Source: Minisyncoccota bacterium (GTDB lineage Bacteria; Patescibacteriota; Minisyncoccia; Phycocordibacterales; JAQTLZ01). From it: DNA of 64,000 nt. Shown here in pieces: positions 16,999 to 46,561 of the stretch. The notes under the pieces were generated by a model. It had not been told where the DNA came from. It saw nothing but the letters and a program-made list of their open reading frames with translations, and searched no databases. The position numbers and the translations under genes were made by a program. The stretch lies in NCBI GenBank assembly GCA_028714635.1, contig JAQTLZ010000003.1, positions 21,237-85,236 of the forward strand, in the 5' to 3' direction. Numbering within the stretch: the stretch's first letter is position 1; each line of letters begins with the position of its first letter.

Positions 16999-17082
16999 AG
17001 AAATAGCTCAATTTTTGAGAAAAAATGTGGATAACTCTAGGTTTTTTCACCAAAACACAGAAAATGGAAATGTGCCGAAAAC

Positions 17083-17111: not shown

Positions 17112-17118
17112 TTTCTGA

Positions 17119-17352: not shown

Positions 17353-17443
17353 AACACAAATATAAACTTTTTTCGAAAGAAAAAAGAATTATTATTTTGG
17401 ACTTTTTGTCCACCTTGACCCATACTCAACACTTTATTTTACT

Positions 17444-32940: not shown

Positions 32941-32990
32941 CCATTGTGGATTTTGTCAGAGGCAAGGGAAAGGTAGAGGAGGAACGAAGT

Positions 32991-34298
32991 ATGACGCAGG
33001 AAAGAATAGTCAGACCGCAAAGAGTCTCACACTTTGCGTGCCAGTCGGTCTTTTTGACCCTAGGCAAGCAGGGAGGATTCAAGACGCTCGACGATTTCCT
33101 GAAGTTCGCGAAGAACGACTGCGGATTCGAAGCCGTCAGCATCCCGACCTGCCCGCCGCTCATCGACATGGCTCAAGCGAGCAAAAGCAAGAGCTACTGC
33201 GCCGATCTGCTCGGCAAGTACGAGAAACACGGCCTTCCGCTTCTGCGCCTCGAAGGCCATACGTCCACACAGTGCGTATGTCTCGATCCGTCACGAAAGC
33301 TGAAGTTCGGCCACTTCATGAGCCCGAAGTTCCGGAAGTTGAAGCATCGCCAAATCGAAAAGCTGGCCGTCAAGGAAGTCAAGAAAGCGATCGATGTGAC
33401 GGCGGCACTGGGTCTCAAACATCTCGTCGCGTTCTGCGGTGGGCGTTCGTTCGCCGTGGCACAAGCGAAATGGGCGGCGTGGCCGAAGTATTTCGCGGCC
33501 TGGTCGCTCGCGCTTCTGGCGTACAAATGGAACGACATCCTGGAATACGCGGCGGAGCGCGGCGTGATCCTCATGTTCGAGATCGGACATCCGGAAAACG
33601 ATCTCCTGACTGCACAAAACTGCATCGACTTCCGCAAGATGCTTACTCCGAAGGCCCGCAAAGCGTTCGGCGTGAACGCGGATCGGTCGCATTTCCGGAA
33701 CGTCGGGACAGATGAGTTGAATCACTTCCGACGCATATTGAAAGATGGGATCCCGATCACCAATCATTACAAGGACGGGATCTACGTCGATCGCGGAGAT
33801 GGAACGGCTTCGCCCTATGGCGGACTCGAGCCGTGGAGCAATTCCGCGGGGACGTTTGCCACAATCGGTATCGTCGGTGACGAGACGGCCCTGCAGGAGT
33901 ACAACGGGCTGATGGCAGAAGCCCACGCAACACAAGAAGGTGGAGTGGACATACACCACGAAGCCGAATGTGTGTTCATCCCTAACCCGAAACAGGGGAT
34001 GATCGTCGGGGCGCACAACTGCCGCGCACTCCGCGATGAAACACCGCTCATCCGGTTCAATAACGTAGCACCGGATACTGATCTCACTCCGTTCTCTACT
34101 ATGGGACGACGCGAACTCGTAGGCGCAGACGGAGCGCCGATGGTTTTGAAGCGGTGGGGCGGTGGGCCATTCGACAAGTTCGCTGATATCCCGGTTTCCG
34201 CACCGGAGCTTCTGTCGCTCTTGGCCGATGAACGGGATGGCTGTGTGGCAATCCTGGAACGAGCAGGATACACAGAGGCTGCCGCAATCAGAAACTAA
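32991..34298 (+). CDS. Xylose-isomerase-like TIM-barrel sugar isomerase (possibly a divergent xylose isomerase), GC-rich foreign gene
   Basis: 435 aa, with VAFCGGRSF (compare WGGREG) and ILMFEIGHPEN (compare FLIEPKP) motifs. GC is ~65% against ~42% in the flanks, and it has a strong SD GGAGGAGGAA 7 nt before ATG 32991 that is unique in the window. The track ORF begins earlier at 32946. Confidence 0.5.
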   Translation: MTQERIVRPQRVSHFACQSVFLTLGKQGGFKTLDDFLKFAKNDCGFEAVSIPTCPPLIDMAQASKSKSYCADLLGKYEKHGLPLLRLEGHTSTQCVCLDPSRKLKFGHFMSPKFRKLKHRQIEKLAVKEVKKAIDVTAALGLKHLVAFCGGRSFAVAQAKWAAWPKYFAAWSLALLAYKWNDILEYAAERGVILMFEIGHPENDLLTAQNCIDFRKMLTPKARKAFGVNADRSHFRNVGTDELNHFRRILKDGIPITNHYKDGIYVDRGDGTASPYGGLEPWSNSAGTFATIGIVGDETALQEYNGLMAEAHATQEGGVDIHHEAECVFIPNPKQGMIVGAHNCRALRDETPLIRFNNVAPDTDLTPFSTMGRRELVGADGAPMVLKRWGGGPFDKFADIPVSAPELLSLLADERDGCVAILERAGYTEAAAIRN

Positions 34299-34327
34299 AT
34301 CACGCTTGTTGCAAATATCGCAACAAG

Positions 34328-34365
34328 GACCACTGGGAAACACTCCCGGTGGTCTTTTATTTTTA
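34328..34365 (+). terminator. Intrinsic terminator after the isomerase gene, with an adjacent second hairpin at 34306..34328
   Basis: GACCACTGGG-AAACACT-CCCGGTGGTC 10-bp stem followed by TTTTATTTTTAT. Confidence 0.7.
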
Positions 34366-34371
34366 TCCCAA

Positions 34372-35664
34372 CTAATACTCAAGAGCCTGCTCCATCTTTT
34401 TTTCCGCAAGAATCTGTGGGATTCCATACGCAAGACGGTTCAAGGTAATAATTTTATCTTTTATACGTGAAGCATATTTTTCCGATTCAGGAGGAAGGCC
34501 GATGCCAGAGAAAGCAGTGCTCGTCTTTCCATCAATCATAAGTTTTATATAAAAATGAAAGCGAGGAAGCCCCAGAAAATCATCGACGGTCATCGGCTCA
34601 AATTCTTTCTCCAAAATCTCCGCGTCCTCAGCGCCAACTTCAAATGCAAGCATTGTGCCGATATTTCCAAGCACAGCTTTTTTTATCGTCTCCGGAAGTT
34701 GCGCTAAATACTGATTGGTAATGTGAATTCCCAAAGCATATTTTCGAGATTCACTCAGGAGGCTCGTGAATGTCTCAGTCGTGAAATTTTGAAACTCATC
34801 GACGTAAAGATAGAACGGCACGCGCCTATTTGCAGATTCATTTGCACGTCTTTGTATCGCGCCCTGAAGACGCGAAATGAGAATGAGACCGAGCATATGT
34901 GCATTTATATCCCCGATTTTTCCTTTTGAGAGATTCACCAAGAGAATTTTATTGCTGTTCATCAAGGCGTCAAAATTGAAACTGCTGGTGCGCTGACCAA
35001 TGATATTTCGCATCAGTTTATTGTTCATAAAATGCCCGAATTTCGAGAGGAAATAGTTGAGCATTTCACTCTTGTGAAAATCCGAAGTCTTCGCCATTTG
35101 TTTCGTCCAGAAATCAATAACCGTTCCGTCTTTCAATTCTTTCCGCTTCTTCATCTCAAATTCTTTATCCACGAAAAGCTTTGGAATTTCAAGAAGACTT
35201 CCCCCTTCCGGCCCCGCCATTACAGTCAAAGCAGCGTTTCGAAGCCAATGCTCGAATTGAGGCCCGATGATTCCAGTCTTTTCCGGGTCAAATAATTTAT
35301 AAAATATTTGGATGCATTCCCCCACCAAAAAATCTTTTTCTTGATCATCCCGTGCTTCCAAGAGATTTAATCCAAAAGGAAATTCCGTATCACTCGGATC
35401 AAAAAGGATAACATCTTCAAGCCTCTCTTTCGGAATATGTGAAAGAAGCCAATCAACGGATTCTCCGTGGGGATCAATAAAACAAACCCCATGACCCTCT
35501 TTTATATCTTGGAGACACATATTTTGGAAAACGGTTGACTTTCCAACTCCAGTCTTCCCGATCATATACATATGTCGAAGACGATCTTTCTCATTCATCC
35601 CGATGAGAGTGCGTCTGCCGTGATATTCATTTGCTCCGATGGTGATAAATGACATATTATTCAA
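34372..35664 (-). CDS. VirD4/TraG/TraD-like (DUF87/HerA-type) P-loop NTPase with no TM domain
   Basis: Walker A MYMIGKTGVGKST, Walker B-like FYLYVDEFQNF and a C-terminal TraD/TrwB-like segment. It is the last gene of a four-gene minus-strand operon. Confidence 0.5.
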   Translation of the reverse strand: MNNMSFITIGANEYHGRRTLIGMNEKDRLRHMYMIGKTGVGKSTVFQNMCLQDIKEGHGVCFIDPHGESVDWLLSHIPKERLEDVILFDPSDTEFPFGLNLLEARDDQEKDFLVGECIQIFYKLFDPEKTGIIGPQFEHWLRNAALTVMAGPEGGSLLEIPKLFVDKEFEMKKRKELKDGTVIDFWTKQMAKTSDFHKSEMLNYFLSKFGHFMNNKLMRNIIGQRTSSFNFDALMNSNKILLVNLSKGKIGDINAHMLGLILISRLQGAIQRRANESANRRVPFYLYVDEFQNFTTETFTSLLSESRKYALGIHITNQYLAQLPETIKKAVLGNIGTMLAFEVGAEDAEILEKEFEPMTVDDFLGLPRFHFYIKLMIDGKTSTAFSGIGLPPESEKYASRIKDKIITLNRLAYGIPQILAEKKMEQALEY

Positions 35665-35974
35665 AAAAAGTTAGGTCGAGCGTTTTTTCTGTAAAATAAT
35701 TCTCGTCCAATACTCGTTTTCGATTTTTCTTTGCTTCTTGAAGCTCTTTTTCTTTTTGGATGATAAGAGCAAATTCTTTTGCTTCCCGGCTTATCTTCTC
35801 GATAAGCGATTTCTGAAGAGGAATGGAAATATACTCGGAAAGCGAAGAAAGCATTTCTGTTTGCCGTGTATGCATTTTTTCAAATGAAGGAAATGCGAGG
35901 AGTTTCTCATCGATTTTTGCCTCCACCGAGCTCATCCCCAATTCCACTGAATGTAATTTTTCGTTTTTTCTCAT
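35657..35974 (-). CDS. Small (106 aa) coiled-coil hypothetical protein
   Basis: Start chosen at ATG 35974, 1 nt after the Clp-like stop, with an 8-nt overlap onto the downstream ATPase gene. K/E-rich heptad character. Confidence 0.35.
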   Translation of the reverse strand: MRKNEKLHSVELGMSSVEAKIDEKLLAFPSFEKMHTRQTEMLSSLSEYISIPLQKSLIEKISREAKEFALIIQKEKELQEAKKNRKRVLDENYFTEKTLDLTFFE

Positions 35975-35975
35975 A

Positions 35976-37640
35976 TTACTTTTTATTAAGCAAGGAACGA
36001 GCAAGAAGCGATTCACATGTCTCCTCAATAAATCGCTTCACAGGACGTGCGCCGAATCGTGGATCAACCATAGTCTTAATTCTCGCCTCAAGAAGCGCAG
36101 GATCAATATCGAACTGCACTCTATGTTTGGAGAGTCGTGCTTCAATTTTCTTGATTTCAAGCTGTGCAACTTCGACAAGGCCTTTGAGAGAAAGCGGATT
36201 GAAAATAAGAATACTGTCGAAACGATTCAAAAATTCAAGGCGGAAAGTCTTCGCAAGCGCTGGAATAATCTTTTCTTTGAGAAAGGCTTCGCTTCCCACA
36301 TCATTTCCCTTTTCAAATTCTTTGAGAATCTCATCCACAGCAATATTCGAAGTCGCCATAATGATAGAGTGGCGAGCATCGACGGTTTCATTCTGGCCAG
36401 ATGTGAGCCGCCCATCATCAAGAACTTGAAGAAAAATATCGAATACTTTCGGGTGTGCCTTCTCAATTTCATCGAGGAGAATGAGACTGTGAGGTTCTTC
36501 CCGAAGCGCGTTGGTAAGTGCTCCTCCACTTTCATACCCGATGTACCCCGCTGGAGCGCCGATAAGCCTCTGCACAGTGTGATCCTGCCCGAATTCCGAC
36601 ATATCAAAACGGATAAATGTTTCGCTTCGGCCGAACATATTTTCTGCGATAAGTTTTGCTGTTTCGGTTTTCCCCACCCCAGAAGGGCCGAGCATAAGAA
36701 ACGAGCCCAATGGTTTATTCGGATTTCGAATTCCCAATTTCGCTCTCTGGAGCGTCGCCGCAATCTTCTTTATTGCTCCTTTTTGGTTGATTATTCTTTC
36801 GCTCAAAACAGACTCAAGATTTTTGAGCACATGAAGCTCATCGGGCTTCAATTGCGCTTTAGGAATTCCAGTTTTGCCCGCAACGACAGAAGCAATAATG
36901 TCATCCGAAAGCTCTTTCTTCCCAAGCGACACAGCATAGGCAAGACTTTCATCAAGAAGACTGACTGCTCCCCGAGGCAATTGCCCCAGTTTGGGAAATC
37001 GTTCCACAAAGCCCACAATTTCTTTGAGCACCGTATCCGAAACCAAAACATGTTCCCCATTCAGATTTGGTAGTGCTCTTTCAAGGATTTGCGCGTACTC
37101 AAGCGAAGTTTGATTCTTCACTTGTATCGTTTCAAAAGATTTAACAAATGCAGGATGTTCCCGCTCGAGCCATGCATATTCATTAGGTTCAAGGGCCAAA
37201 ACGATTCGCACGTGCGACTTTTTCAGAAGTATCTGATAGAGGCGAAAAATATTTTTAAGGAGTGAACTGTTGCCAAGTACCGCTCTTCCAAAATTATCTA
37301 TAAAAACTACAGATGGAGGCAAGGTCGTCAGTGCTTGCTCAAAATATTTTGCATAGGCTTCATTTTCAAGCTCATACAAATGCTCCGCATCAAGTTGGAT
37401 AAATTGGAGCGAATCAAACTCTTTCTTCCCTGCCATCTTTTTTATCCAGCCATAAACAAGGGTAGTTTTCCCGATGCCATTTGAGCCAACAACGAGGACA
37501 TTGTTGCTTATCTTTCGAGTCACGACACGTGTAAGCCGTTCCATTTCCTCGGTACGGCCAATAACGTTCGGCAATTTGCCCGAGCGAACTTCTTTTCGAA
37601 GATCAAAATATTCAATTTTTTTAAAATGAAAATCAGTCAT
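35976..37640 (-). CDS. Compact two-ring Clp/Hsp100-family AAA+ ATPase (D1+D2) with no N-domain, M-domain or ClpP-docking loop
   Basis: D1 has IGRTEEMERLTRVV...VVGSNGIGKTTLV with a degenerate Walker B, VVFIDNFG. D2 has LMLGPSGVGKTETAK, LILLDEIEKAH and GARPVKRFIEE. It is 554 aa against ~750-870 for ClpA/B/C, and has no IGF/IGL tripeptide. Confidence 0.8.
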   Translation of the reverse strand: MTDFHFKKIEYFDLRKEVRSGKLPNVIGRTEEMERLTRVVTRKISNNVLVVGSNGIGKTTLVYGWIKKMAGKKEFDSLQFIQLDAEHLYELENEAYAKYFEQALTTLPPSVVFIDNFGRAVLGNSSLLKNIFRLYQILLKKSHVRIVLALEPNEYAWLEREHPAFVKSFETIQVKNQTSLEYAQILERALPNLNGEHVLVSDTVLKEIVGFVERFPKLGQLPRGAVSLLDESLAYAVSLGKKELSDDIIASVVAGKTGIPKAQLKPDELHVLKNLESVLSERIINQKGAIKKIAATLQRAKLGIRNPNKPLGSFLMLGPSGVGKTETAKLIAENMFGRSETFIRFDMSEFGQDHTVQRLIGAPAGYIGYESGGALTNALREEPHSLILLDEIEKAHPKVFDIFLQVLDDGRLTSGQNETVDARHSIIMATSNIAVDEILKEFEKGNDVGSEAFLKEKIIPALAKTFRLEFLNRFDSILIFNPLSLKGLVEVAQLEIKKIEARLSKHRVQFDIDPALLEARIKTMVDPRFGARPVKRFIEETCESLLARSLLNKK

Positions 37641-37651
37641 GGAAATCTAAA

Positions 37652-39535
37652 TTACGCGGCTCGTCTCATTGTGATACCGCTCGACGGATCACTTTCGGTA
37701 TAGGTTCGTTCCGCTTCCAATTCGTCAATATTTGATTGCGGCTGTCTTCCGTTCACTCCGCTTAGAACTCCCGCTTTTTCTCGAGATTCACCAAAACGAG
37801 CATCCCTCTCCTGCCCTGAAAAGATATCGATTGTATTCGCACCCGTCTCGGAAATGTTTTCTTGCGCCTGGTCTCCTTTCCTTTCATTCTCAACCACGAT
37901 TCTCTTCGCTTCCGGACGAGAAAACTGAACATACGGAGAAGGAATAAGGACTTCATCAGAAATTTTATCCTCTTTTTTGTCTTCTTCTATTTTCTTCTCA
38001 ATAATGCCCGGCTTGTCTGCATTTTTTTCCGCCACTTCTCTTTTCTCAGGTGTTTCCTCCGGTTCTTTTCTTTCTTGTTTCTCTATTTTTATCGGCTTTT
38101 TCTTTTCTGCAATGACAACCTGTTTTTCCTTCTCCTTTGGCAGATCTTTTTTCTCCGCTTCTGGTACTATCGGAGGTTTATCTGGGGTTGTTATTTTTTC
38201 AAGAATAAACTCTTCTTCCCAAACTTCTTTGAGAGGAACAATTTGCTGTTCAATTTTATCCTCAGCAAAAGTATCTCCACCTCCTTCCGGATCTTCTGGC
38301 TCTGGCTCGGGAATGCTCACCAACTCAATTCCGGACGGCTGTTCTTCCTCGAAAATTCCTGCCTTTAAAGTCTCCTTAGCTTCCGTGCTATCCGTACCAG
38401 CTCTTTTACTCAAATCGCTTGGAATAAGGATATCTTCTCCTTCTTCTTTGAAAACGACTGGCTCCCGTTTCTCGTCTGCTTGGAAAACTTCTGGCGCTAA
38501 CAGCTCTTCAATAATTTCTTCTTTCTTTTCGGAATGTACTTCTACCACTTCGGATTCTTCCTCTGACTCCCGCTCCAAACGCTCTTGGCTATTCACGCGA
38601 GCGATTGCTTCGAAGTTTTCAGTTTTTTCTGCAAAAATCTCTGCTTTTCCTTGCACTTTCTCTTCCGGTGCTTGCCTCTCTGGCGCTTCTCTAGGCGAGA
38701 TATTTATAATCGTATTCAAATGAGAAGTTTCAAATAACGGAGCGATAGAGATTGAGTCCACCGCATCCACTTGCGTGTTTTCTCCATTCGTCCCATTCAC
38801 AAGAGATGCGTCGGAAAAAATTCCTGAAGCATTTTCCATCCCCATTTGCTCTCGCAATTCGGCATTTACATCAATTACGAGCGGCCCGCTATCGTTATCA
38901 CTATCTCCATCAAAAGATGTGCTTACTATTTCTGAATCATCATATCCATCATCAGTCTCTTCTCGTATTACAAGTTCTTTTTCAGGATGTAAATAATAGG
39001 AATATTTAATCTCATTATTCTGTCCTTCAAGCCTGACAAATGTAATATGAGTGCCTTTTTCATCAACAAATTTGAAAGTGTAGGAACCTTTTTCGGCCAA
39101 GCCCTTTCTCATCTCCTCATCCGCCTTTCGAAAATTTTCATTCTCATTAACAGAGCCTTTCCCTGTTTTATCAGTCAAACACTCATCCGTTGCTAAATCA
39201 TAAATTTTCCCATCTGCTTCGTTAAAATACGTACTGTCGCCGGATATGTTCACCTCATCATCCACCCCCCATTCCTTACTTTTCCCTCCGTGTTCTTTCG
39301 CGATGACTGCCCGAATATCCCCATCTCTCCACTCTCCTCTCTCGGCTTTTCGCGCCTCCCTTTTCGCTTCTAAATTTTCTTGTTTAAGCCTTTCTTCATT
39401 CGCAACATCTTCGGGAGACTTGGTATCCTCTCGAGAATCTGCAGGAACTCTCTCGACAGGAGGAATATCCTCAAGTACGGGAGCTTGAGGTTTATCTATG
39501 AAATCTTCTGGTATTTCTTGCAGTGTTTCTGGCAT
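37652..39535 (-). CDS. Highly acidic (D/E-rich), largely low-complexity hypothetical protein
   Basis: About 627 aa with long E/K/D-rich stretches and no TM or signal peptide. The track ORF uses TTG 39553; ATG 39535 (MPETLQEIP) is more plausible because 39553 abuts the terminator U-run. Confidence 0.45.
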   Translation of the reverse strand: MPETLQEIPEDFIDKPQAPVLEDIPPVERVPADSREDTKSPEDVANEERLKQENLEAKREARKAERGEWRDGDIRAVIAKEHGGKSKEWGVDDEVNISGDSTYFNEADGKIYDLATDECLTDKTGKGSVNENENFRKADEEMRKGLAEKGSYTFKFVDEKGTHITFVRLEGQNNEIKYSYYLHPEKELVIREETDDGYDDSEIVSTSFDGDSDNDSGPLVIDVNAELREQMGMENASGIFSDASLVNGTNGENTQVDAVDSISIAPLFETSHLNTIINISPREAPERQAPEEKVQGKAEIFAEKTENFEAIARVNSQERLERESEEESEVVEVHSEKKEEIIEELLAPEVFQADEKREPVVFKEEGEDILIPSDLSKRAGTDSTEAKETLKAGIFEEEQPSGIELVSIPEPEPEDPEGGGDTFAEDKIEQQIVPLKEVWEEEFILEKITTPDKPPIVPEAEKKDLPKEKEKQVVIAEKKKPIKIEKQERKEPEETPEKREVAEKNADKPGIIEKKIEEDKKEDKISDEVLIPSPYVQFSRPEAKRIVVENERKGDQAQENISETGANTIDIFSGQERDARFGESREKAGVLSGVNGRQPQSNIDELEAERTYTESDPSSGITMRRAA

Positions 39536-39551
39536 GAAAATAAATAAAGAC

Positions 39552-39577
39552 AAAAAATCCTTCTCGATGAAAGAAGG
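39552..39577 (-). terminator. Intrinsic terminator immediately upstream of the acidic-protein gene
   Basis: Minus strand reads CCUUCU-UUCAUCG-AGAAGG followed by AUUUUUUG. It lies 17 nt before ATG 39535. Confidence 0.6.
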
Positions 39578-39745
39578 TGGCGAAGAGGCGCAAGCGCGTA
39601 CTCTTTAATCTCACATCCTTTACTCGAGGACTGACGAAACATACTTTCGTGCGCGGTATTCGGACTTCCCTCTTTCGAGAGTTACCGTAGCGGTACTGTG
39701 CCGGAATTACACCGGACTTCCCCAACGCAACGAAATAATTTTTCA
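39552..39745 (-). ncRNA. Candidate structured leader / riboswitch-like attenuator or small RNA of unknown class
   Basis: A ~190-nt minus-strand segment with moderate GC and several local hairpins (CCGG-UGUAAUU-CCGG, CUCU-CGAA-AGAG, ACGAAA-GUAUG-UUUCGU). It carries two copies of GGGAAGUCCG and ends in a terminator just before a gene start. No convincing protein-coding potential. Confidence 0.35.
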
Positions 39746-39895
39746 AAAACAACAATCAAAACCGGAAACGTATAAGGATATTATATGTCACAGAGAAACA
39801 CGTGCAAGAGTGGATTACTACGCACAGCACACATTAAAATAAAAGCTAGGGAAAAATTTTTAAAGCTCATAAAATAAGGAGATTCCTGGAATTAG

Positions 39896-40780
39896 CTAAG
39901 AACACATCTCTTCAATCACTCCGTCCGTTAGATCATTATTACTAGGAAAAATCTGTGTGGCCCCAACTTTCTTTGCAATTGCAAGATAAACAGATTGTCC
40001 AACGGCAATATTGTCGCAAAACGCCGGATCTTTCGGATACATCTTTTTTAATTCATCGATTGGTGTTCGCCTTAATTTCTGGACATAATCAGAAAAACCA
40101 TCCGGAGAAAAAAGCATGGTGTGCGCAGAAAATGCGCCTGGTGTAAAAGATAACTTAAGAGGAGAACTAATTAATTCTACGAAATGCAAGATTCCAGTGA
40201 CAAAAATAATATCTGCCTTTTCGGTTATAATCATTTCCGCCTCTAAATACTTATCGAGACTATCCCAATCAATAGCGCCATCACCCCGTAAAAATTTTCC
40301 CTTCAAAAATTTAACTCCAAAAGGGAATTTATTAAAGCTTTTTAGATCTTTCTTATCTCCAAAAACTAATTCTGTACTTCCTCCGCCAATATTTACTGCT
40401 GCAAACTGGATTTTTGATGGAATCACATTAACAAACCCTTTATAGAGATAAAGAGTTTCTTTCTCTTGAGAAATAACCTCTGGCGTCACAGAAAGAATGT
40501 CCTCAACCATTCTACAAAACTCGGGAGCATTTTTTGCTTTTCTCAAAGCCTCTGTGCCAAGGACTTTTAGCATTTTCACGCCTTCTTTTTTATTTCGGAC
40601 CAAAGCAACCGAAAGAAGCTCTGAAGTTCTTTGAAATGCCTCAGGAGCAATATTTTCAGCTACACCGAGACCAACATCGGAATATCGTTCAAAATGAATA
40701 AGTTTTTTAGGACCCGGTTTTACTTCAAAAATATAATGTTTGAGACTTTGGGTTCCGATATCGATGATGGAGATTTTCAT
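39896..40780 (-). CDS. Ppx/GppA-family phosphatase (exopolyphosphatase / pppGpp phosphohydrolase fold)
   Basis: MKISIIDIGTQSLKHYIF matches the Ppx/GppA N-terminal (I/A)IDLGSNS motif. ASKHA fold, ~294 aa. Confidence 0.65.
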   Translation of the reverse strand: MKISIIDIGTQSLKHYIFEVKPGPKKLIHFERYSDVGLGVAENIAPEAFQRTSELLSVALVRNKKEGVKMLKVLGTEALRKAKNAPEFCRMVEDILSVTPEVISQEKETLYLYKGFVNVIPSKIQFAAVNIGGGSTELVFGDKKDLKSFNKFPFGVKFLKGKFLRGDGAIDWDSLDKYLEAEMIITEKADIIFVTGILHFVELISSPLKLSFTPGAFSAHTMLFSPDGFSDYVQKLRRTPIDELKKMYPKDPAFCDNIAVGQSVYLAIAKKVGATQIFPSNNDLTDGVIEEMCS

Positions 40781-41205
40781 GAATTGAAGTAAACTCTTTT
40801 TTTCTGGTAATTTTCTAAAATAACTTTCGATCCCGAGAAAAGAGGCTCTGGCAGATTATCGAGCGGATACCAATCCCATTCTCCGCTTTTTTCTGGCTCC
40901 ATCACCCGCGGCTCTCCGCTTGACCAATCTGCCGACATCCCGATATGAACATAATGCCGAGGGGGATATAATTTCGTCGTACCAACCGAAACAAATCGAA
41001 TATTTTTTATTTCAATATCGCATTCCTCTTTCGTTTCGCGCATTGCGCACTCTTCAAACGTCTCCATATACTCCAAATGTCCCCCGGGAAATTGATATTC
41101 TCCATTGCCAAATTGCCCTTTTCTTTTAGCTAAAAGAATTTTTCCGTCTTTGAAAACAATGACACCCATCCCCACTCTGGGTTTTAATTCTTTTGAATCA
41201 ACCAT
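40777..41205 (-). CDS. NUDIX hydrolase
   Basis: Nudix box GGHLEYMETFEECAMRETKEECDI (GX5EX7REUXEEXGU). Confidence 0.8.
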   Translation of the reverse strand: MVDSKELKPRVGMGVIVFKDGKILLAKRKGQFGNGEYQFPGGHLEYMETFEECAMRETKEECDIEIKNIRFVSVGTTKLYPPRHYVHIGMSADWSSGEPRVMEPEKSGEWDWYPLDNLPEPLFSGSKVILENYQKKRVYFNS

Positions 41206-41218
41206 AAAAAATGTTTTA

Positions 41219-41764
41219 TTAAAACTTCATATGGAACCAATCAAGCCCGTAAATGTCGTTTATAAGCGTTCTTTCTCCTTTAGCCCACGTTTTATTTTTT
41301 GAAAGACCGAGAAGCACGATTGCTTCTTTCACGTGTTCTTCACTGCTCCCTTCGATTTCCAGATACGCTGGCATTTTTGGATACTGATCGATATCAAATA
41401 CCCAGTCTTTCAAAACAAAAGAGATCCTATCTTTTTCCTGATGGCCGTAAAGCTCGAGACCAAATTCTTCAAAAAGATCGGCTAATTTTTCGGATTCCTC
41501 AATATTAAAATTAATTTCTTTGTGCTTGCGAGCAGTTCCCAAAATTTCTGATTTGGCTTTCCACGTCACTTCACGTTTCCCTTCTGAATTCTGCCTAATT
41601 CGAAGAAACCACGGATCATCACCTGCATGAGTAAGTCCCTTCGGACCAAACCAATCCACAATCAGACGAGTCTCTTTGGTTCTTTTTGCTCCAAGTTTTG
41701 TGAGTTTCGCGATCAAATCCCCGCTGTCGATATCCAAAACCTTCGTCTCAATTTCATGCGCCAT
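41219..41764 (-). CDS. CYTH-domain protein (triphosphate tunnel metalloenzyme / class IV adenylyl cyclase-like)
   Basis: N-terminal HEIETKVL is the CYTH ExExK signature; ~180 aa. Confidence 0.65.
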   Translation of the reverse strand: MAHEIETKVLDIDSGDLIAKLTKLGAKRTKETRLIVDWFGPKGLTHAGDDPWFLRIRQNSEGKREVTWKAKSEILGTARKHKEINFNIEESEKLADLFEEFGLELYGHQEKDRISFVLKDWVFDIDQYPKMPAYLEIEGSSEEHVKEAIVLLGLSKNKTWAKGERTLINDIYGLDWFHMKF

Positions 41765-41769
41765 AAAAG

Positions 41770-42396
41770 TTAAGAGAAAATTTTAGCCACCGTGTCCGCA
41801 AAAGAAATATCCTTCAGCATGTCCCTTTTCCAACTCTGAACGAACTTCGTAAGAAACTTCTTCGCAATCTTGTCTTTCATGCCTTGTATCATTTTGATAA
41901 AAGTCGAGCTGATGAGCTTTACGTCAGATTTCATGAATTTATTGGCATACATTTTAAAATGCACAGCCTCTATATAATCAGCAATTTTTGCGATCCGCGA
42001 TTCATCTGATTCAAAAGCTTGTTCTTCTTTTAAAAGATCTGCAAAATATCCTTTCTGTGCACCAAAAAGACCGGAAAGATAGCGCTGATTTTCTATTTCA
42101 AATTTCTTAGCGTGCTTATAAGCTTCGGGATTTGCTTTCCTGTATCGCATAGAAATATCGCCCCCAAAGAGTTCGCCCAGATCATGCACGAGCGAAAGTT
42201 CAAGAACTTTTTTTATGTCGATCTTTGCACCTTTTGCATTAAGAGAAGCGGCGATCTGCCATGCAAGCATTGCTACCAAATATTGATGCTCTGCCAAATT
42301 CGAAAGCGGCATGTCTCCGCCATTTACGGCATACCCATATTGCGGCTGTTTGCGGGTGAGTTCCAAAATATGGAAAAGTTTCGTAAGGTGTTCCAT
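41770..42396 (-). CDS. HD-domain phosphohydrolase (YfbR-like 5'-deoxynucleotidase type)
   Basis: H...HDLGE metal-binding motif (SLVHDLGELFGGD); ~208 aa. Confidence 0.65.
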   Translation of the reverse strand: MEHLTKLFHILELTRKQPQYGYAVNGGDMPLSNLAEHQYLVAMLAWQIAASLNAKGAKIDIKKVLELSLVHDLGELFGGDISMRYRKANPEAYKHAKKFEIENQRYLSGLFGAQKGYFADLLKEEQAFESDESRIAKIADYIEAVHFKMYANKFMKSDVKLISSTFIKMIQGMKDKIAKKFLTKFVQSWKRDMLKDISFADTVAKIFS

Positions 42397-42486: not shown

Positions 42487-42933
42487 ATGAAACAAAAAGT
42501 ACCTATAGAAATAGTGCTTCGTCCCACATTCCGATTCGCCTTTACGATGGCACGCTTGAGCGGCAGAATTCTGCGCAATGAAATTGGCATCGGCATCTCG
42601 CAATTTAGGATGCTCGCTGCCCTCTCCAACCTGCCGAACTCTTCGCAGAAAAAGATCGCCAGCTTCTGGGACGTCACCGAAGCCTCGATCAGCCGGCAAA
42701 TCCAAAATCTCCTTGCAAAAGATCTTATTGTGAAGACAAAGAATCCAGAAAATATTCGAAGTCCTTTTTTAAATGTGAGCGAAAAAGGAAAAAAACTTTT
42801 AAAAAAATCACTCCACCACATCGATCGTCATGCCGAGACCACCTTCAACACCATCACTCCCGAGGAACGAAAAACCCTTTCTCGCCTACTTGAAAAAATG
42901 TTCGTCTGCGCGAAAAAAGAAGTCGAAATCTAA
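42487..42933 (+). CDS. MarR-family transcriptional regulator
   Basis: Winged-HTH segment SQFRMLAALSNLPNSSQKKIASFWDVTEASISRQIQNLLAKDLIVK; ~148 aa. Confidence 0.75.
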   Translation: MKQKVPIEIVLRPTFRFAFTMARLSGRILRNEIGIGISQFRMLAALSNLPNSSQKKIASFWDVTEASISRQIQNLLAKDLIVKTKNPENIRSPFLNVSEKGKKLLKKSLHHIDRHAETTFNTITPEERKTLSRLLEKMFVCAKKEVEI

Positions 42934-42945
42934 TATAATAAAACT

Positions 42946-44622
42946 ATGCACAAATATAAAAAAATAAAATTGTGGTTTCTCGCTCATAAAATTATTGGAT
43001 TAATAGTAGTTCTTGCTATCGTTTTCGGCGCCTACCAAATCTATAAGCACTACACTGCCCCCTCGACCGAACCTCGATACATCCTCGCAACTGTCGAAAA
43101 AGGTACTATTACCTCTTCGGTCACCGGAACAGGCCAAGTTTCCGCTTCGAATCAAATTGAACTCAAAGCAAAAGTTTCTGGCGAAGTAGTGGCCCTCAAT
43201 GCGAAAACGGGTGATGAAATAAAAGCTGGAAGCACTATTCTTCAGATAGACTCATTCGATGCGGGCATTGAACTCGAAAACGCAAAAATTGCTTATAAAG
43301 ACCTCATTACTGTCGAACCACTTGATATTATAAAGGCGCAAAATACCCTCAATAATGCCGAGAGTTCACTCACTACCGCCTACAACAATGCTCTCGGAAC
43401 CCTTACAGCATCTTCCTTCGATATGTCTAAAGTTCACGACGATCTTAATTCCCTTTTGTCGGGAAATGGATATTTACGCCAGACAAACTACGGTCTGGAT
43501 GGAACTGAGAGAACATACCGAACGAAGGCATACGAAAGTTTCGTAACCGCAGAAACAGCTTTTTACGCATTTCAGAAAGATATCGTTGGTATTTCAGCGA
43601 AAACGAATCCTGAAATTATAGAAGCTAAGGTCATAAATGGATACCAAACCGCGAATATAGTCGCCAAAGCTGCAAAAGACGCGAAAGATGCAGTCTCATA
43701 CACAAGCCGATACGCGGAAGCAAGCGATACGGACGCGAGTGAAGCAAATGCAGCGGTAAGCTCGCTCACAGCCACAATAAACTCTGCCGTAGCAAACCTT
43801 CTTTCAGCCAAAGAATCTATTGCATCAGGAAAACGAAACCTTGAAGAAACGAGGCTCAACCTTGCCGACGTAAAAAACGGGCCAAAAGAGACAGACGTAA
43901 AATCAAGCGAACTAAATGTGCGTCAAAAAGAAAAAGCCTACTACGATCACTTTATTACAGCTCCTTTTAATGGCATCGTAGGCCGGCTGGACGTAGAAAA
44001 GAATGATTCGATTTCGAGTGGGAGTGTAGTTGGCATCTTTCTCAGTAAAACAAAGATCGCCGATATTTCCCTTAATGAAGTAGACATCGCTCATATCAAA
44101 GTCGGACAAAAAGTAACGCTGACCTTCGATGCAGTAGAAGGACTTTCTATTTCTGGAGAAGTCGTCGAGATGGACCTTGTGGGCACAGTCACGCAGGGAG
44201 TGGTGAATTACAATGTAAAAGTCGCATTCAACACCGAAGATGACCGGGTAAAAGCTGGGATGAGCGCGAACGCGGTGATTGTGACAAGCACGATAGGAAA
44301 TGTACTGGCGATACCAAATAGCGCTGTAAAAATAAGGGGTGAAAAACATTATGTAGAAATTCTCCCCGATGCTTCAGGAGATACTTCCTCAAAATCAGGA
44401 GTGACTTCATCTGCTTTGCCGATTCAGCAAGAAATAGAGATTGGCACTGCGGGTGATACAAAGACAGAAATCACTTCGGGACTCAAAGAAGGAGATAAGA
44501 TCATTGTACGAACGATTGCCGCATCGGCATCCCCCACAACTTCTCAAGCACCGAGCATCTTTGGGGGAGGAACGCGTACAACAACTGGAGGCGGAGCAAA
44601 TCGCGGTACAACAGGAAGATAG
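42946..44622 (+). CDS. HlyD/MacA-family periplasmic adaptor (membrane fusion protein) with a long coiled-coil insert
   Basis: N-terminal TM, beta-barrel/lipoyl-like motifs (VSGEVVALNAKTGDEIKAGSTILQIDS) and a C-terminal MacA-like domain. Sits upstream of the macB-like genes. Confidence 0.7.
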   Translation: MHKYKKIKLWFLAHKIIGLIVVLAIVFGAYQIYKHYTAPSTEPRYILATVEKGTITSSVTGTGQVSASNQIELKAKVSGEVVALNAKTGDEIKAGSTILQIDSFDAGIELENAKIAYKDLITVEPLDIIKAQNTLNNAESSLTTAYNNALGTLTASSFDMSKVHDDLNSLLSGNGYLRQTNYGLDGTERTYRTKAYESFVTAETAFYAFQKDIVGISAKTNPEIIEAKVINGYQTANIVAKAAKDAKDAVSYTSRYAEASDTDASEANAAVSSLTATINSAVANLLSAKESIASGKRNLEETRLNLADVKNGPKETDVKSSELNVRQKEKAYYDHFITAPFNGIVGRLDVEKNDSISSGSVVGIFLSKTKIADISLNEVDIAHIKVGQKVTLTFDAVEGLSISGEVVEMDLVGTVTQGVVNYNVKVAFNTEDDRVKAGMSANAVIVTSTIGNVLAIPNSAVKIRGEKHYVEILPDASGDTSSKSGVTSSALPIQQEIEIGTAGDTKTEITSGLKEGDKIIVRTIAASASPTTSQAPSIFGGGTRTTTGGGANRGTTGR

Positions 44623-44636
44623 AAACTTCAGTAACC

Positions 44637-45353
44637 ATGATTGAAATCAAAGATGTCACAAAAACATACTCATCAGGAAATTTGGCGTTTCAAGCGCTTC
44701 GCGGAGTAAGCTTCTCGATTACTAATGGAGAATTTGTCGCAATTATGGGGCCGTCAGGTTCGGGGAAATCTACGCTCATGCACATCCTCGGAGCTCTCGA
44801 CACTCCCACTTCTGGAAAATATTTTCTAGATGGAAAAGATGTGAGTTTACTAAGCGATGATGAACTGGCAAACATACGAAGAGATAAAATCGGCTTTGTA
44901 TTCCAAGCTTTCAATCTTCTTCCGCGAGCCACCGTGCTTCGCAATGTGATGCTCCCGCTCGTATATGACGGAATAAAAAAAGAGGAACGGATAATTCGTG
45001 CACAGAAGGCATTAAAAGCCGCGGGACTCGAACAAGATCATTTTCTCCACCTTTCAAACCAGCTCTCTGGAGGACAAATCCAGCGCGTGGCAATTGCGAG
45101 AGCGCTTGTGAACAATCCGAAACTCATTCTCGCAGATGAACCGACCGGAAACCTTGATACAAAAACTGGAGAGATTGTGCTCGGCACATTCCAGCGTTTA
45201 AATGAAGAGGAGGGGCGCACCATTGTACTTATCACCCACGAATCGGATGTTGCGGAACATGCTGAAAGGATTATTCATATCAAAGACGGATTGGTATTAA
45301 GCGACAGCAAAAAGCATACGCGAAGAATTATTCACAAAAGCGAAACAAGATGA
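44637..45353 (+). CDS. ABC transporter ATP-binding protein, MacB/LolD type
   Basis: Walker A GPSGSGKST, signature LSGGQIQRVAIARAL, Walker B ILADEPTGNLD. Confidence 0.85.
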   Translation: MIEIKDVTKTYSSGNLAFQALRGVSFSITNGEFVAIMGPSGSGKSTLMHILGALDTPTSGKYFLDGKDVSLLSDDELANIRRDKIGFVFQAFNLLPRATVLRNVMLPLVYDGIKKEERIIRAQKALKAAGLEQDHFLHLSNQLSGGQIQRVAIARALVNNPKLILADEPTGNLDTKTGEIVLGTFQRLNEEEGRTIVLITHESDVAEHAERIIHIKDGLVLSDSKKHTRRIIHKSETR

Positions 45354-46561
45354 CAACGCTGGACATCCTTCAAGAAACATACACCGCTCTTTCTTCGAAC
45401 AAAGTTCGCACTAGCCTTACTATGCTCGGTATTGTGATAGGAATCGGCTCTGTGATTGCAATGGTCTCTATCGGACAGGGCGCAAAAGTACAAATACAAT
45501 CTTCAATTGAAAGTCTCGGTTCAAACCTTCTCACCATTTTGCCCGGAGTCGTACAGCCGGGACGAGGGCTCGTCTCGTCAGGAAGAGGTTCCGCTCAAAG
45601 TCTCAAAAATGAGGATGTGGATATTATAAAAACAATCGAAGGAATCGCCGCACTTTCTCCAGAATTATCGAGAAGGTTTCAAGTAAGCGCTCCAACAGGA
45701 AATAATACGAACACCACAGTAAATGGAGTTCTCCCGGCGTATCTCGAAGTAAAAAATCTCTCTGTTGCGGAGGGAAATTTCTTAAGCGACGCGAGCATAA
45801 GAAGCATCGGAAGAGAGGCCGTGCTTGGAGCAAATATTGCAAAAGATCTTTTTGGCGAGGCAGACCCGTTGGGAAAAACAATTCGCATAAACAATACTAT
45901 CTTTCGAGTTGTTGGAATATTGACAGCGAAAGGAGGTGCAGGATTTTCCGGACCAGATGATTTAGTTATCATTCCCCTCTCCACAATGCAGAAAGTCTTA
46001 AGCGGAGTGGATTATCTCTCCGCCCTCTATGTGAGCGTGACCGATAAAGAACAGATGAATACGGTGCGCGACCTCATAACCACCGCTCTCCTCGAAAAAC
46101 ACCGGGTGGACGAAGCTGATTTTTCCATCATTTCACAAGAGGATATCTTGGGCACACTTTCTACAGTAGTAAATACTTTTACATTATTCTTAGCTTCTAT
46201 AGCGGGAATTTCACTCGTAGTGGGAGGAATCGGAATTATGAACATGATGCTTACCACCGTCACTGAAAGGACGAAAGAGATAGGACTTCGCAAAGCGATC
46301 GGAGCGAAAAGAAGCGACATTAACACCCAGTTTCTTGTTGAAGCAATCGCACTTACTTTCATCGGAGGATTTATTGGGATTGTTCTGGGATGGTCAATCG
46401 CTTCTCTCGTGACCTATTTCGGCATCGTACAAACGCAAGTTTCGCTTTCTTCCGTGCTTCTGGCCTTTGGAGTTTCAACCGCAATCGGAATTATTTTCGG
46501 ATATTATCCGGCCCGTCGCGCGGCAAAGCTAAATCCAATAGAGGCTTTGCGGTATGAATAA
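45350..46561 (+). CDS. ABC transporter permease, MacB-type (periplasmic core domain + FtsX 4-TM)
   Basis: N-terminal TM, large periplasmic domain and C-terminal FtsX-like helices. Overlaps the ATPase gene by 4 nt. Confidence 0.8.
   Translation: MTTLDILQETYTALSSNKVRTSLTMLGIVIGIGSVIAMVSIGQGAKVQIQSSIESLGSNLLTILPGVVQPGRGLVSSGRGSAQSLKNEDVDIIKTIEGIAALSPELSRRFQVSAPTGNNTNTTVNGVLPAYLEVKNLSVAEGNFLSDASIRSIGREAVLGANIAKDLFGEADPLGKTIRINNTIFRVVGILTAKGGAGFSGPDDLVIIPLSTMQKVLSGVDYLSALYVSVTDKEQMNTVRDLITTALLEKHRVDEADFSIISQEDILGTLSTVVNTFTLFLASIAGISLVVGGIGIMNMMLTTVTERTKEIGLRKAIGAKRSDINTQFLVEAIALTFIGGFIGIVLGWSIASLVTYFGIVQTQVSLSSVLLAFGVSTAIGIIFGYYPARRAAKLNPIEALRYE

Follow-up and report, generated by a model that had tools for sequence, protein, structure and literature searches.

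The window, the whole 64-kb stretch of DNA that was analysed, contains four tightly packed minus-strand open reading frames (g1 to g4), present at the coordinates given by the initial annotation. The gaps reported there, 11 nt (g1-g2) and 1 nt (g2-g3), and the 8-nt overlap of g3 with g4 agree with the ORF coordinates; the overlap applies to a TTG start of g4 and becomes a 1-nt gap with an ATG start.

The first gene, g1, encodes an acidic disordered protein and was listed from a TTG (37652-39553, minus strand). The codon at 39553 falls within the U-tract of a riboswitch terminator, and for this reason the ATG at 39535 (MPETLQ..., 627 aa; 37652..39535) is the more likely start. It is followed by g2 (35976..37640, minus strand), a compact two-ring Clp/Hsp100 ATPase of 554 aa, and by g3 (35657..35974, minus strand), a protein matching no family whose length is 105 aa and not the 106 aa first annotated. 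The last gene, g4, encodes a soluble VirD4/TrwB-like P-loop ATPase. On the minus strand it spans 34372-35664 from the TTG of the ORF list, or 34372..35655 from an ATG (MSFITIG..., 427 aa) that fits the family N-terminus MxxVxIG better. A G+C-rich hairpin (34325..34357) lies between the convergent ends of g4 and a plus-strand gene (32946-34298); its T-run is good on the plus but weak on the minus strand.

A conserved cassette linked to a cobalamin riboswitch

Directly 5' of g1, Rfam identifies an AdoCbl (cobalamin) riboswitch aptamer (RF01482; 39606..39747, minus strand). The model is matched over its full length with 60 bits (gathering score 50; E = 1.7e-10), and the aptamer, which is in the sense direction, lies 70 nt ahead of the g1 ATG. 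Downstream of it, the terminator scan places an intrinsic terminator, the expression platform, at 39551..39577 (minus strand), with the hairpin CCTTCTT-TCATC-GAGAAGG followed by ATTTTTTG. An equivalent hairpin and U-tract lie 3' of the aptamer in all six loci folded. An alternative pairing, between the aptamer's 3' hairpin and the 5' arm of the terminator, gives the MFE fold of the window leader and comes close to the MFE in L081. A candidate promoter read by eye (TTGCAC, 16-nt spacer, TATAAT; 39780..39807, minus strand) may serve the operon; its -10 hexamer is perfect, and it is absent from the promoter scan listing because the -35 matches just 3/6 bases. The domain calls of the initial annotation and the conservation of the arrangement held up, but the riboswitch and terminator upstream of g1 had been overlooked.

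Homologous aptamers occupy the same position in all cassette loci examined. Upstream of g1 homologs, Rfam scores reach 65 bits in L089, 58.2 in L081, 47.5 in L085 and 33.2 in L084, and L087 carries an AdoCbl-II match of 31.2 bits. The riboswitch core is conserved and the aptamer stems covary (21 sequences). A covariance model (R1) built in this analysis was positive in 22/22 metagenome loci of the g2 family having enough upstream DNA and found no aptamer in 19 generic-Clp loci (0/19).

In Paceibacteria, a large group of ultra-small CPR bacteria, the full layout, riboswitch-g1-g2-g3-g4, is present wherever the upstream DNA reaches far enough (∼23 non-identical loci), and g3 and g4 lie downstream of g2 in all family loci with enough downstream sequence. 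Flanking genes vary while the gene order persists, and from genome to genome the cassette is found among different housekeeping genes. Absence of the arrangement from related genomes, which would have spoken against the initial annotation, was thus not what was found. Across Kaiser-, Wolfe-, Nomura- and Colwellbacteria, g2 and g4 are 60-77% identical, which indicates strong constraint on a chromosomal, not a mobile, function. The possibility that g4 is a partition or phage-packaging ATPase within a mobile element, also raised at the outset, found no support either, as the 64-kb window holds no mobile-element, partition or phage-packaging context.

It is highly likely that g1-g4 are under B12-riboswitch control. 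The nearest known parallel is that of cobalamin riboswitches (Rfam clan CL00101: AdoCbl RF01482, AdoCbl-II RF01689, Cobalamin RF00174) that work as transcription-terminating OFF switches, and the window element resembles them in its full-length aptamer above the curated threshold, its sense placement in a 5' leader and the terminator directly downstream. By analogy with all characterised members, it would likewise be an OFF switch. Its targets are different: they are neither B12 biosynthesis or transport genes nor B12-independent isozymes, but an Hsp100 unfoldase, a coupling-protein-like ATPase and two proteins matching no known family. The gene order had not been recognised as a described system, in line with the literature, where no report was found of a cobalamin riboswitch regulon with an unfoldase and a coupling-type ATPase.

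The four proteins and long-form relatives of the ATPase

The g1 protein is strongly acidic and without a TM segment, as first annotated: its pI is 4.47, aspartate and glutamate make up 158 of its 627 residues, and no hydrophobic segment was detected (maximum 19-residue Kyte-Doolittle average 0.82). It has no match in Pfam, NCBIfam or PADLOC, and a search of 1.84 billion representative proteins returned only ∼4 relatives. A small, poorly conserved N-terminal domain (∼residues 80-185), for which the AF2 model of the N-terminal part is of low confidence (pLDDT 51.7), precedes a ∼400-aa acidic disordered region and a C-terminal tail (...SGITMRRAA in the window). Homologs range from 295 to 1021 aa and are hypervariable outside this tail, which is conserved as NG[IV]TL[KR]xAA. 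The strict motif occurs in 27 of 2488 ORFs (at least 100 aa, all loci), each of the 27 being the gene that adjoins the riboswitch, a count to be read with the motif having been defined post hoc from the sequences and amounting, across two classes, to about one independent observation. Among the carriers is X1, a Microgenomates protein with no other relation to g1, in operons that share just the ATPase with the window; no homology to g1 was detectable among the Microgenomates riboswitch-proximal proteins. The tail is short, with basic residues ahead of a terminal Ala-Ala (...NGITLKRAA), as in ssrA-type degrons and C-terminal T4SS secretion signals, and on this resemblance we take it to be a candidate recognition signal. 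It would suit a role of g1 as a client; unlike for ssrA degrons there is no ClpP partner, and the outcome would be unfolding or translocation, not degradation.

Alignment to ClpA and ClpB bears out the description of g2 as a two-ring Clp/Hsp100 ATPase lacking the N-domain, the M-domain and the ClpP loop. The protein (AAA_2 and ClpB_D2-small domains) aligns with residues 176-721 of E. coli ClpA and with D1/D2 of ClpB, has no N-domain or M-domain regions, and shows no insertion at the position of the ClpA IGL loop, which is the ClpP-docking loop. Like the class I Clp/Hsp100 proteins (ClpA, ClpB, ClpC, ClpV/TssH) it has two AAA+ modules, with a ClpB/ClpC-like D2 and D2-small (278 bits for the D2 module). 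It differs from them in a degenerate D1, in which the catalytic Glu, the arginine-finger motif and the KYRG pore loop are missing across the family. The D1 Walker B is VVFIDNFG, with Asn replacing the Glu as first annotated (family-wide hhhhD[N/D/T]FG), and KSF stands in place of the ClpB RRF motif. From these motifs, the D1 ring appears to bind ATP only, leaving the intact D2 ring as the active motor. Family members are 550-560 aa long and 60-70% identical, and g2 misses all curated equivalog cutoffs by a wide margin (NCBIfam ClpB, 388 bits against 1232). As with ClpV/TssH of type VI secretion, g2 would serve one machine and not general proteostasis.

The small g3 protein, found invariably between g2 and g4, has no match in Pfam, NCBIfam or PADLOC and carries a conserved C-terminal motif, K.L(D/K)..YF.(Q/E)K.LD. 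It is possibly an adaptor or regulator of g4, for which the small helical CagZ, which regulates Cag-beta (PDB 8dol title), offers a possible analogue.

The initial call of g4 as a soluble VirD4/TraG-type NTPase, with the motifs MIGKTGVGKST (Walker A) and FYLYVDEFQNF, is corroborated by a profile search of PDB sequences (DotL, 1.2e-6; TrwB, 3.8e-6) and by the predicted structure. Family matches are weak (Pfam DUF87, TrwB_AAD_bind and TraG-D_C; NCBIfam TraD, 41 bits against a cutoff of 366) or partial (NCBIfam DNA-translocating ATPase CedD). The AF2 model (pLDDT 87.7, pTM 0.88) matches TrwB-deltaN70 and Cag-beta over the full length in a Foldseek search of the PDB (TM 0.60-0.65), and HerA with E = 6e-12 and TM 0.54. 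By profile and model comparison, type IV coupling proteins are the closest relatives of g4. It shares FtsK/HerA/VirD4-class Walker A and B motifs with TrwB of R388, VirD4, Cag-beta and DotL, and has a helical insertion at the site of the coupling proteins' all-alpha domain; a hexameric ATPase is proposed. However, sequence similarity to these proteins is marginal, and g4 has no TM segment, whereas canonical coupling proteins are membrane-anchored at the N-terminus. Also unlike theirs, the g4 gene adjoins neither virB4 nor a relaxase gene and is chromosomal, highly conserved and riboswitch-controlled.

Relatives of g4 in other CPR classes have a long form, in which an N-terminal TM helix, anchoring the protein in the membrane, and a ∼350-380-aa domain with no Pfam match precede the ATPase. 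In a subset of Microgenomates (L045, L047, L053, L054, L070), the long-form gene closes operons that are led by a cobalamin riboswitch and adjoin genes for class II (B12-dependent) RNR, PduO adenosyltransferase and DUF4430/DUF6580 proteins. The operons of L047 and L054 themselves encode a DUF4430 protein, a DUF6580 membrane protein, a small protein and the ATPase, with PduO also in L047. In 12 genome loci the long-form gene has NrdJ and/or PduO just upstream of it, and in L038 it has them downstream; in L042, NrdJ, PduO, a small protein and the ATPase form a single overlapping operon. The small proteins upstream of long-form ATPases showed no detectable homology to g3. No riboswitch was detected at the long-form loci of Saccharibacteria, Berkelbacteria and Doudnabacteria, nor at more than half of those of Microgenomates; the basic job of the ATPase family is thus not B12-specific.

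Possible roles of the operon

The initial annotation proposed an unfolding-and-delivery module, for example one feeding a type IV secretion, competence or pilus machine encoded elsewhere. "Unfold-and-deliver" still accounts for the four proteins most coherently. The conserved riboswitch, however, argues for a response to B12 limitation and not for a constitutive feeder of such machines, and the 64-kb window shows no link to a T4SS, competence or pilus machine and no channel, virB4 or B12-related gene. With AdoCbl plentiful, the aptamer would bind it, the terminator would form and g1-g4 would be off; when B12 is short, transcription would read through. Having neither the DnaK-coupling M-domain nor the ClpP loop, g2 would act as a stand-alone threading motor that unfolds g1 once its tail is recognised, and g4 would pass g1 to a membrane channel encoded elsewhere, for which the monoderm-type T4SS of CPR bacteria is plausible. 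To our knowledge, no Hsp100-coupling protein partnership has been described. CPR bacteria do carry T4SSs, most of their VirD4-like genes are unlinked to virB4, and exaptation of these unlinked genes was raised as a possibility (bioRxiv 10.1101/2025.01.22.634366). We put the chance that the operon is a g1-threading or translocation module at about even, and hold somewhat more tentatively the fuller reading, that B12 starvation induces a module whose g2 and g4 thread g1 towards a channel with its genes elsewhere.

A different purpose would be DNA or deoxynucleotide supply, with g4 as a DNA translocase for uptake or processing of foreign DNA that is de-repressed, as a B12-independent source of deoxynucleotides, when AdoCbl-dependent NrdJ fails. 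TrwB, HerA and FtsK relatives are DNA pumps, which gives weight to the nearest structures of g4 and its partial CedD match; B12 riboswitches commonly control B12-independent isozymes, such as B12-independent reductases in other bacteria, and CPR bacteria rely on nucleotide salvage. In L089 the gene immediately before the riboswitch is NrdJ, and elsewhere NrdJ and/or PduO lie near the long-form gene, including in the L042 operon; the same-strand upstream neighbours in the window are a 5'-deoxynucleotidase-like HD protein and a NUDIX protein, and ComM and gyrBA flank the long-form gene in a Saccharibacteria locus. Yet this leaves the acidic g1 with its conserved tail, and a protein unfoldase, without a role. 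Family searches found no DNA-binding domain, nuclease or competence gene within the cassette, and the putative B12-uptake and adenosylation genes co-operonic with the ATPase in L047 and L054 fit B12 acquisition at least equally; we consider DNA supply improbable. These same DUF4430, DUF6580 and PduO (L047) genes, and the N-terminal TM helix of the long form, could instead suggest that the ATPase and its partners directly power corrinoid import through DUF4430/DUF6580-type binding and membrane proteins. That is less probable again: neither DUF4430 nor DUF6580 is encoded in the Paceibacteria cassette, g4 is soluble, and g1 and g2 would be left unexplained. We know of no FtsK/HerA/VirD4-class ring translocase that drives small-molecule uptake.

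The closeness of the g2 D2 module to that of ClpB/ClpC would also fit a ClpB-like disaggregase operon with accessory proteins and an incidental riboswitch. The missing M-domain for DnaK coupling, the catalytically degenerate D1, the low NCBIfam ClpB score and the invariable linkage of g2 to g1, g3, g4 and the riboswitch make such general quality control very unlikely. Even slighter is the chance of a mobile element or anti-phage defence, that is, a conjugative coupling protein or a HerA/ClpB-type defence ATPase pair. PADLOC returns domain-level matches (g2 to PDC-M37B and DolB, g4 to mad8 and HerA), but these are confined to generic AAA or P-loop cores, and no integrase, relaxase, virB4, phage or defence partner is present in the 64-kb window. 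Defence islands and mobile elements are patchy in distribution, whereas this cassette is well conserved across orders in varied housekeeping neighbourhoods, and control by a metabolite riboswitch would be unexpected for either.

With g2 and g4 read as threading g1 towards a channel, g1 would be an exported client and the purpose B12 acquisition; overall, either corrinoid scavenging or DNA/deoxynucleotide supply would be the purpose. The operon would be part of a B12-starvation response whose likeliest output is corrinoid scavenging from the host or surroundings, itself still a doubtful assignment. In a link that was not found described in the literature, B12 shortage very probably switches on a module comprising an unfoldase and a secretion-type ATPase.

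Operon anatomy and the predicted cobalamin riboswitch

The initial annotation described four closely spaced minus-strand genes, and all four ORFs are present in that layout: g1, encoding an acidic disordered protein (ATG at 39535); g2, a compact two-ring Clp/Hsp100 ATPase (35976-37640); g3, a small protein (35657-35974); and g4, a soluble VirD4/TrwB-like ATPase (34372-35655). The spacings of 11 nt, 1 nt and then an 8-nt overlap (or a 1-nt gap if g4 starts at its ATG) were read correctly, and their shortness implies tight coupling of the four genes. Gene sizes and starts required partial revision: the ORFs are as given, but g3 encodes 105 aa and the starts of g1 and g4 are probably shifted. The ATG at 39535 (MPETLQ..., 627 aa) is the likely start of g1 because the TTG at 39553 listed previously falls inside a terminator U-tract. 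For g4, the most likely start is the ATG at 35655, because its N-terminus, MSFITIG, fits the family pattern MxxVxIG.

A cobalamin riboswitch directly 5' of g1 had been overlooked in the earlier sequence-only reading. This AdoCbl riboswitch, at 39606-39747 on the minus strand, is the sole Rfam match in the entire window (RF01482, clan CL00101; 60 bits against a gathering score of 50, E = 1.7e-10) and aligns over the whole model (positions 1-149 of 149). From the end of the aptamer to the g1 ATG is 70 nt, an interval that contains a terminator-like hairpin (39577-39559) followed by a U-tract. Upstream, a perfect TATAAT and a TTG-containing -35-like hexamer, spaced by 16 nt, are located ~30 nt from the aptamer; this promoter was read by eye and falls below the threshold of the scanning tool.

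An alignment of 21 cassette-linked aptamers, the cassette being riboswitch-g1-g2-g3-g4, showed little or no variation in the core GGT...CC / C.GTRCCGC.AC.GTAA. Of the 12 predicted stem pairs, 4 show compensatory changes (for instance CG/GC/AU and UA/GC/CG/AU), and a loop of some aptamers carries variable insertions. A terminator hairpin with a U-tract follows the aptamer in all six loci folded. The alternative anti-terminator fold, in which the 3' hairpin of the aptamer pairs with the 5' arm of the terminator, is the minimum-free-energy structure in the window and close to it in the Paceibacteria locus L081; RNA folding did not recover it in a second such locus, L089. Aptamer, terminator and alternative pairing together form the anatomy of a transcription-terminating OFF switch. 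Repression of the operon by B12 is supported by analogy with all characterised cobalamin riboswitches.

Both g2 and g4 have thousands of relatives. The closest g4 relatives are 70-77% identical and all ~426 aa long, the closest g2 relatives 60-70% identical and ~553 aa long, and these come from lineages named Kaiser-, Wolfe-, Nomura-, Colwell- and Pacebacteria, among others. Conservation of the gene neighbourhood, proposed earlier as a check, was found: the contigs of seven relatives keep the g1-g2-g3-g4 order, with a protein of 295-686 aa lacking any Pfam match, a Clp-like protein of 552-559 aa, a small protein of 79-106 aa and a VirD4-like protein of 424-432 aa, while the genes flanking the cassette are unrelated among them. 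In 5/5 loci with DNA available, Rfam detected an aptamer of the cobalamin clan immediately 5' of the g1 homolog, three scoring above or near the gathering score and two below it. A covariance model was built from five cassette aptamers and scanned against 50 metagenome loci retrieved with g2. It detected an aptamer before a g1-like ORF in all 22 g2-family loci with enough upstream sequence and in 0 of 19 loci with ordinary Clp genes. After duplicate removal, ~23 distinct loci carry the full arrangement, and no counter-example was seen. A conserved Paceibacteria operon under a predicted cobalamin riboswitch is firmly supported.

The loci differ in their surroundings. In L089, NrdJ (class II B12-dependent ribonucleotide reductase) lies directly upstream of the riboswitch, and Sua5 and amino-acid-kinase genes directly follow g4; in the window the latter pair is ~10 kb away. 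An SLT gene (lytic transglycosylase, VirB1-like) lies directly 3' of g4 on the same strand in L081 (10337-11536, +), and an SLT_2 gene ~4.6 kb downstream on contig P0036; the window has no equivalent of either.

Elsewhere in the window are genes for carbohydrate and glycogen metabolism, RNase J, Sua5, transporters and glycosyltransferases, as well as a 4856-aa ORF. The B12-related genes NrdJ, PduO (cobalamin adenosyltransferase), DUF4430 and DUF6580 are not found in it. A recognisable mobile element had been named as an argument against the initial interpretation, and the window contains no integrase, relaxase, virB4 or phage gene. Just 5' of the putative riboswitch promoter, the same strand carries genes for Ppx/GppA, NUDIX, CYTH and an HD 5'-deoxynucleotidase-like (YfbR-like) protein (39896-42396, -). 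A MacAB-type efflux set (42487-46561, +), consisting of a MarR regulator, an HlyD-like adaptor, an ABC ATPase and a MacB/FtsX permease, is transcribed opposite to these nucleotide-metabolism genes, which end at 42396. Convergent with g4 is a 450-aa xylose-isomerase-like TIM-barrel gene (32946-34298, +) with a local G+C of 0.49 and several long overlapping ORFs in other frames; this segment may be a horizontally acquired insert. The 4856-aa protein is encoded by a single ORF (2409-16979, -) with a G+C of ~0.50, compared with ~0.43 over most of the window. Pfam gives it a single match, a weak, below-cutoff hit of 21 residues to BppL_N (phage baseplate N-terminal domain), and it probably belongs to the giant surface proteins of CPR bacteria.

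The two predicted motors

The g2 product is a member of the Clp/Hsp100 class I two-ring AAA+ superfamily (AAA_2, 2.7e-57; ClpB_D2-small, 4.9e-13), with two tandem AAA+ modules and a degenerate D1. Residues 13-551 align to ClpA over its span 176-721. The absence of an N-domain, M-domain and ClpP-docking loop, as initially described, is borne out by alignments to ClpA and ClpB that skip the N- and M-domain regions and contain no ClpA-loop insertion. Compared with the ClpB disaggregase, g2 aligns to D1 and D2 only, skipping the M-domain region, and it scores 388 bits on TIGR03346 against a cutoff of 1232. Unlike the ClpP partners ClpA, ClpC and ClpX, its D2 aligns to the loop-less ClpB D2 without an insertion, and no IG[FL] tripeptide is visible by eye in the D2 region of a 16-member family alignment.

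D1 keeps its Walker A motif. The replacement of the catalytic Glu of its Walker B by Asn, noticed at the outset, extends beyond this protein: the motif reads D-N in g2 and D-[N/D/T] family-wide. In addition, KSF replaces the RRF arginine-finger motif of ClpB and the KYRG pore-loop motif is missing, while D2 is intact and almost invariant. These features describe a compact Hsp100 with a putatively inactive first ring throughout the family, dedicated to one operon.

Two other identities were considered and rejected. For a defence role, PADLOC returned only partial matches to AAA/P-loop cores (PDC-M37B, DolB, mad8, HerA), with no partner genes. The pairing of an acidic protein with an AAA+ protein recalls the cobaltochelatases CobT/CobS or ChlD/ChlI; g1 has neither a vWA domain nor any Pfam match, and g2 is Clp-type, not MoxR/ChlI-type.

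For g4, the Walker motifs (Walker A GKTGVGKST; Walker B YLYVDEFQ) and the lack of a transmembrane segment agree with the initial description. A profile of short and long forms of the family (the long form being described below) matched, among PDB sequences, DotL best (1.2e-6), followed by TrwB (3.8e-6) and then HerA-type proteins. In Pfam, TrwB_AAD_bind (23.2 against 20.5) and DUF87 (25.4 against 23.2) exceed their cutoffs, both over short stretches; TraG-D_C is below its cutoff, and the NCBIfam TraD, CedD and CD1115 models are far below theirs. The AF2 model (pLDDT 87.7, pTM 0.88) has a helical insertion at about residues 105-236, and superimposes with TrwB-deltaN70 and Cag-beta at TM scores of 0.60-0.65 over its full length. 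By E-value, HerA and VirB4 are comparable to these two, HerA having the best value of all, but their TM scores are lower or one-sided. The modelled all-alpha-type insertion within the NTPase domain is shared with type IV coupling proteins, whereas their N-terminal TM anchor is lacking in g4 (maximum 19-residue Kyte-Doolittle average 0.99). As modelled, g4 is soluble and resembles the cytoplasmic portion of type IV coupling proteins. A Pfam scan of 49 further window ORFs found neither virB4 nor a relaxase near it. Because it has no membrane anchor and no virB4 or relaxase linkage, we call it coupling-protein-like and not a canonical type IV coupling protein. Such genes are common in CPR: a survey of 2,918 genomes reported 5,713 VirD4-like genes, almost all away from virB4 and only 148 near it, and noted that the copy in Southlakia is non-essential and that these genes may have been exapted (bioRxiv 10.1101/2025.01.22.634366).

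Long-form ATPases in other CPR classes

A scan of a genome collection with g4 returned distant relatives, with no Paceibacteria among the matches listed, and cassettes were therefore counted from the g2 metagenome scan instead. The matches listed, from Saccharibacteria, Microgenomates, Berkelbacteria and Doudnabacteria, contain a g4 homolog of 44-57% identity as the C-terminal half of a larger protein of 740-1,570 aa, most being ~780-1,030 aa. This long form begins with one N-terminal TM helix and ~350-380 residues without a Pfam match. Among the matches listed, a small same-strand ORF (60-380 aa; ~100-170 aa in Saccharibacteria and Microgenomates) lies just upstream in 68 of 79 loci scored, and no g2 homolog was found near the long-form genes. 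Comparisons by hhalign of g3 with the small upstream proteins of Saccharibacteria and Microgenomates, and of the g1 N-domain with the riboswitch-proximal proteins of Microgenomates, both gave probabilities below 1%, so only positional equivalence, and no homology, is claimed.

Five Microgenomates species representatives among the matches listed (L045, L047, L053, L054 and L070) have a cobalamin riboswitch at the head of a compact operon on one strand, whose last two genes encode the small protein and the long-form ATPase. The riboswitches of L045, L047 and L070 are AdoCbl-II (37.5-46.1 bits against a cutoff of 36.5), that of L054 is a Cobalamin match just under its cutoff (31.0 against 31.5 bits), and that of L053 was detected with our own covariance models only. 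The genes between riboswitch and ATPase variously encode DUF4430, a DUF6580 membrane protein, PduO or a 375-700-aa protein without a Pfam match. In three further loci (L061, L064 and L066), the gene led by the riboswitch is divergent and lies next to the ATPase. NrdJ and/or PduO occur within the sequenced ATPase locus in 13 of 80 genome loci among the matches listed, just upstream of the ATPase in 12 and ~8 kb downstream in L038. In the complete genome of Woesebacteria Ch104b (L042, 4593-10281), overlapping genes on one strand for NrdJ, PduO, a 131-aa protein and the long-form ATPase make up a single operon, for which no riboswitch was detected.

Among the matches listed, the loci of Saccharibacteria, Berkelbacteria and Doudnabacteria, and over half of those of Microgenomates, likewise yielded no riboswitch. 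That many long-form loci yield none indicates that the basic activity of the ATPase family is not B12-specific. As judged from the predicted riboswitches, two CPR classes have brought the family under the control of B12, each in combination with its own operon partners.

Several long-form loci have further features. L001-L003, L005 and L006 each carry two same-strand long-form paralogs, adjacent or a few kb apart (e.g. L003, 7762-10329 and 13463-16390), which are the closest long forms to g4 among the matches listed (52-56% identity). In L022 (Ca. Microsaccharimonas, Saccharibacteria), the pair of small protein and long ATPase is flanked by a ComM-like (Mg-chelatase family) gene and gyrB-gyrA (3373-4893, -, and 12964-17530, +), a DNA-related neighbourhood. 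On the Levyibacteriota chromosome of L070, a group I intron match (16025-16225, +; Rfam 66.5 bits against a cutoff of 50) lies ~6 kb downstream of the ATPase.

The acidic protein and models of operon function

The g1 product is strongly acidic without a hydrophobic segment, in line with the initial annotation (pI 4.47, 25% Asp+Glu), and has no match in Pfam, NCBIfam or PADLOC. Across its homologs, length varies between 295 and 1021 aa and Asp+Glu content between 17 and 27%; all that they share is a domain of ~100 residues close to the N-terminus, with weak conservation, and a C-terminal tail, NLNG[IV]TLK[IR]AA, whose conservation is strong. A word-indexed homolog search with the N-terminal region returned nothing, and an exhaustive search with HMMER, using the N-terminal 215 residues against 1.84 billion representative proteins, yielded only ~4 true relatives. 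So few relatives imply that g1 diverges fast and that no deep alignment is possible; the AF2 model of this region, from a 4-sequence alignment, is of low confidence (pLDDT 51.7).

The tail pattern G-[IV]-[ITRS]-[LMIF]-x-x-small-small occurs at the extreme C-terminus of 27 of the 2488 ORFs of at least 100 aa in all fetched sequence, and all 27 carriers are the riboswitch-proximal gene. They include an otherwise unrelated 630-700-aa protein of the Microgenomates loci L045, L053 and L054, whose operons have only the ATPase in common with the window. This suggests, as a lead, that a g1-type tail may be read by the ATPase. It is treated as a lead only, because the pattern was defined after the sequences had been seen and the cross-class match is in effect one observation.

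In the reading that we favour, which is a proposal held with limited confidence, g1 would be a client of both ring motors and would be exported via a channel encoded elsewhere, and the purpose of the operon would be to acquire corrinoid. By analogy, g3 may adapt or regulate g4 in the manner of CagZ, which regulates Cag-beta (title of PDB 8dol). A bolder version, to which we give a low but real probability, is that the operon represents a new kind of vitamin-acquisition or starvation pathway, an unrecognised CPR response to B12 shortage built on an exapted coupling ATPase. In Paceibacteria, the Hsp100 and the ATPase would then move g1, as a long acidic carrier, across the envelope by its tail, either exporting it or reeling it back, and so capture corrinoid from the host or the surroundings.

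In the strongest competing explanation, the ATPase moves DNA and provides a B12-independent supply of deoxynucleotides while NrdJ is idle. Such a role fits both the regulatory logic and the NrdJ neighbourhood, and the nucleotide and polyphosphate genes at 39896-42396 may be relevant to it, but it gives no account of g1 or the unfoldase. Other alternatives fit less well: an ATPase that directly powers the import of B12, a general chaperone operon, and a mobile element or defence system.

The superfamilies of the parts are already known; the literature searched describes neither their combination nor its regulation by a B12 riboswitch, and nothing relevant turned up there on such a riboswitch in CPR or on one linked to type IV secretion. 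CPR/Patescibacteria account for much of bacterial diversity and are epibionts unable to make most cofactors, and the cassette bears on the question of how they acquire them. The predicted riboswitch linkage, present in every Paceibacteria locus examined and in some Microgenomates, offers the first concrete, testable physiological context for the CPR VirD4-like family, namely B12 limitation, and would extend the gene repertoire controlled by cobalamin riboswitches to protein-translocation motors. If g1 is indeed a client of the two motors, this would mark the first pairing of an Hsp100 unfoldase with a coupling protein, and would bear on the old question of what unfolds the substrates of type IV secretion. 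If g1 is a corrinoid carrier, the operon would represent protein-mediated vitamin acquisition with no counterpart among known B12 transporters, and would provide a function for thousands of 'orphan' CPR VirD4-like genes.
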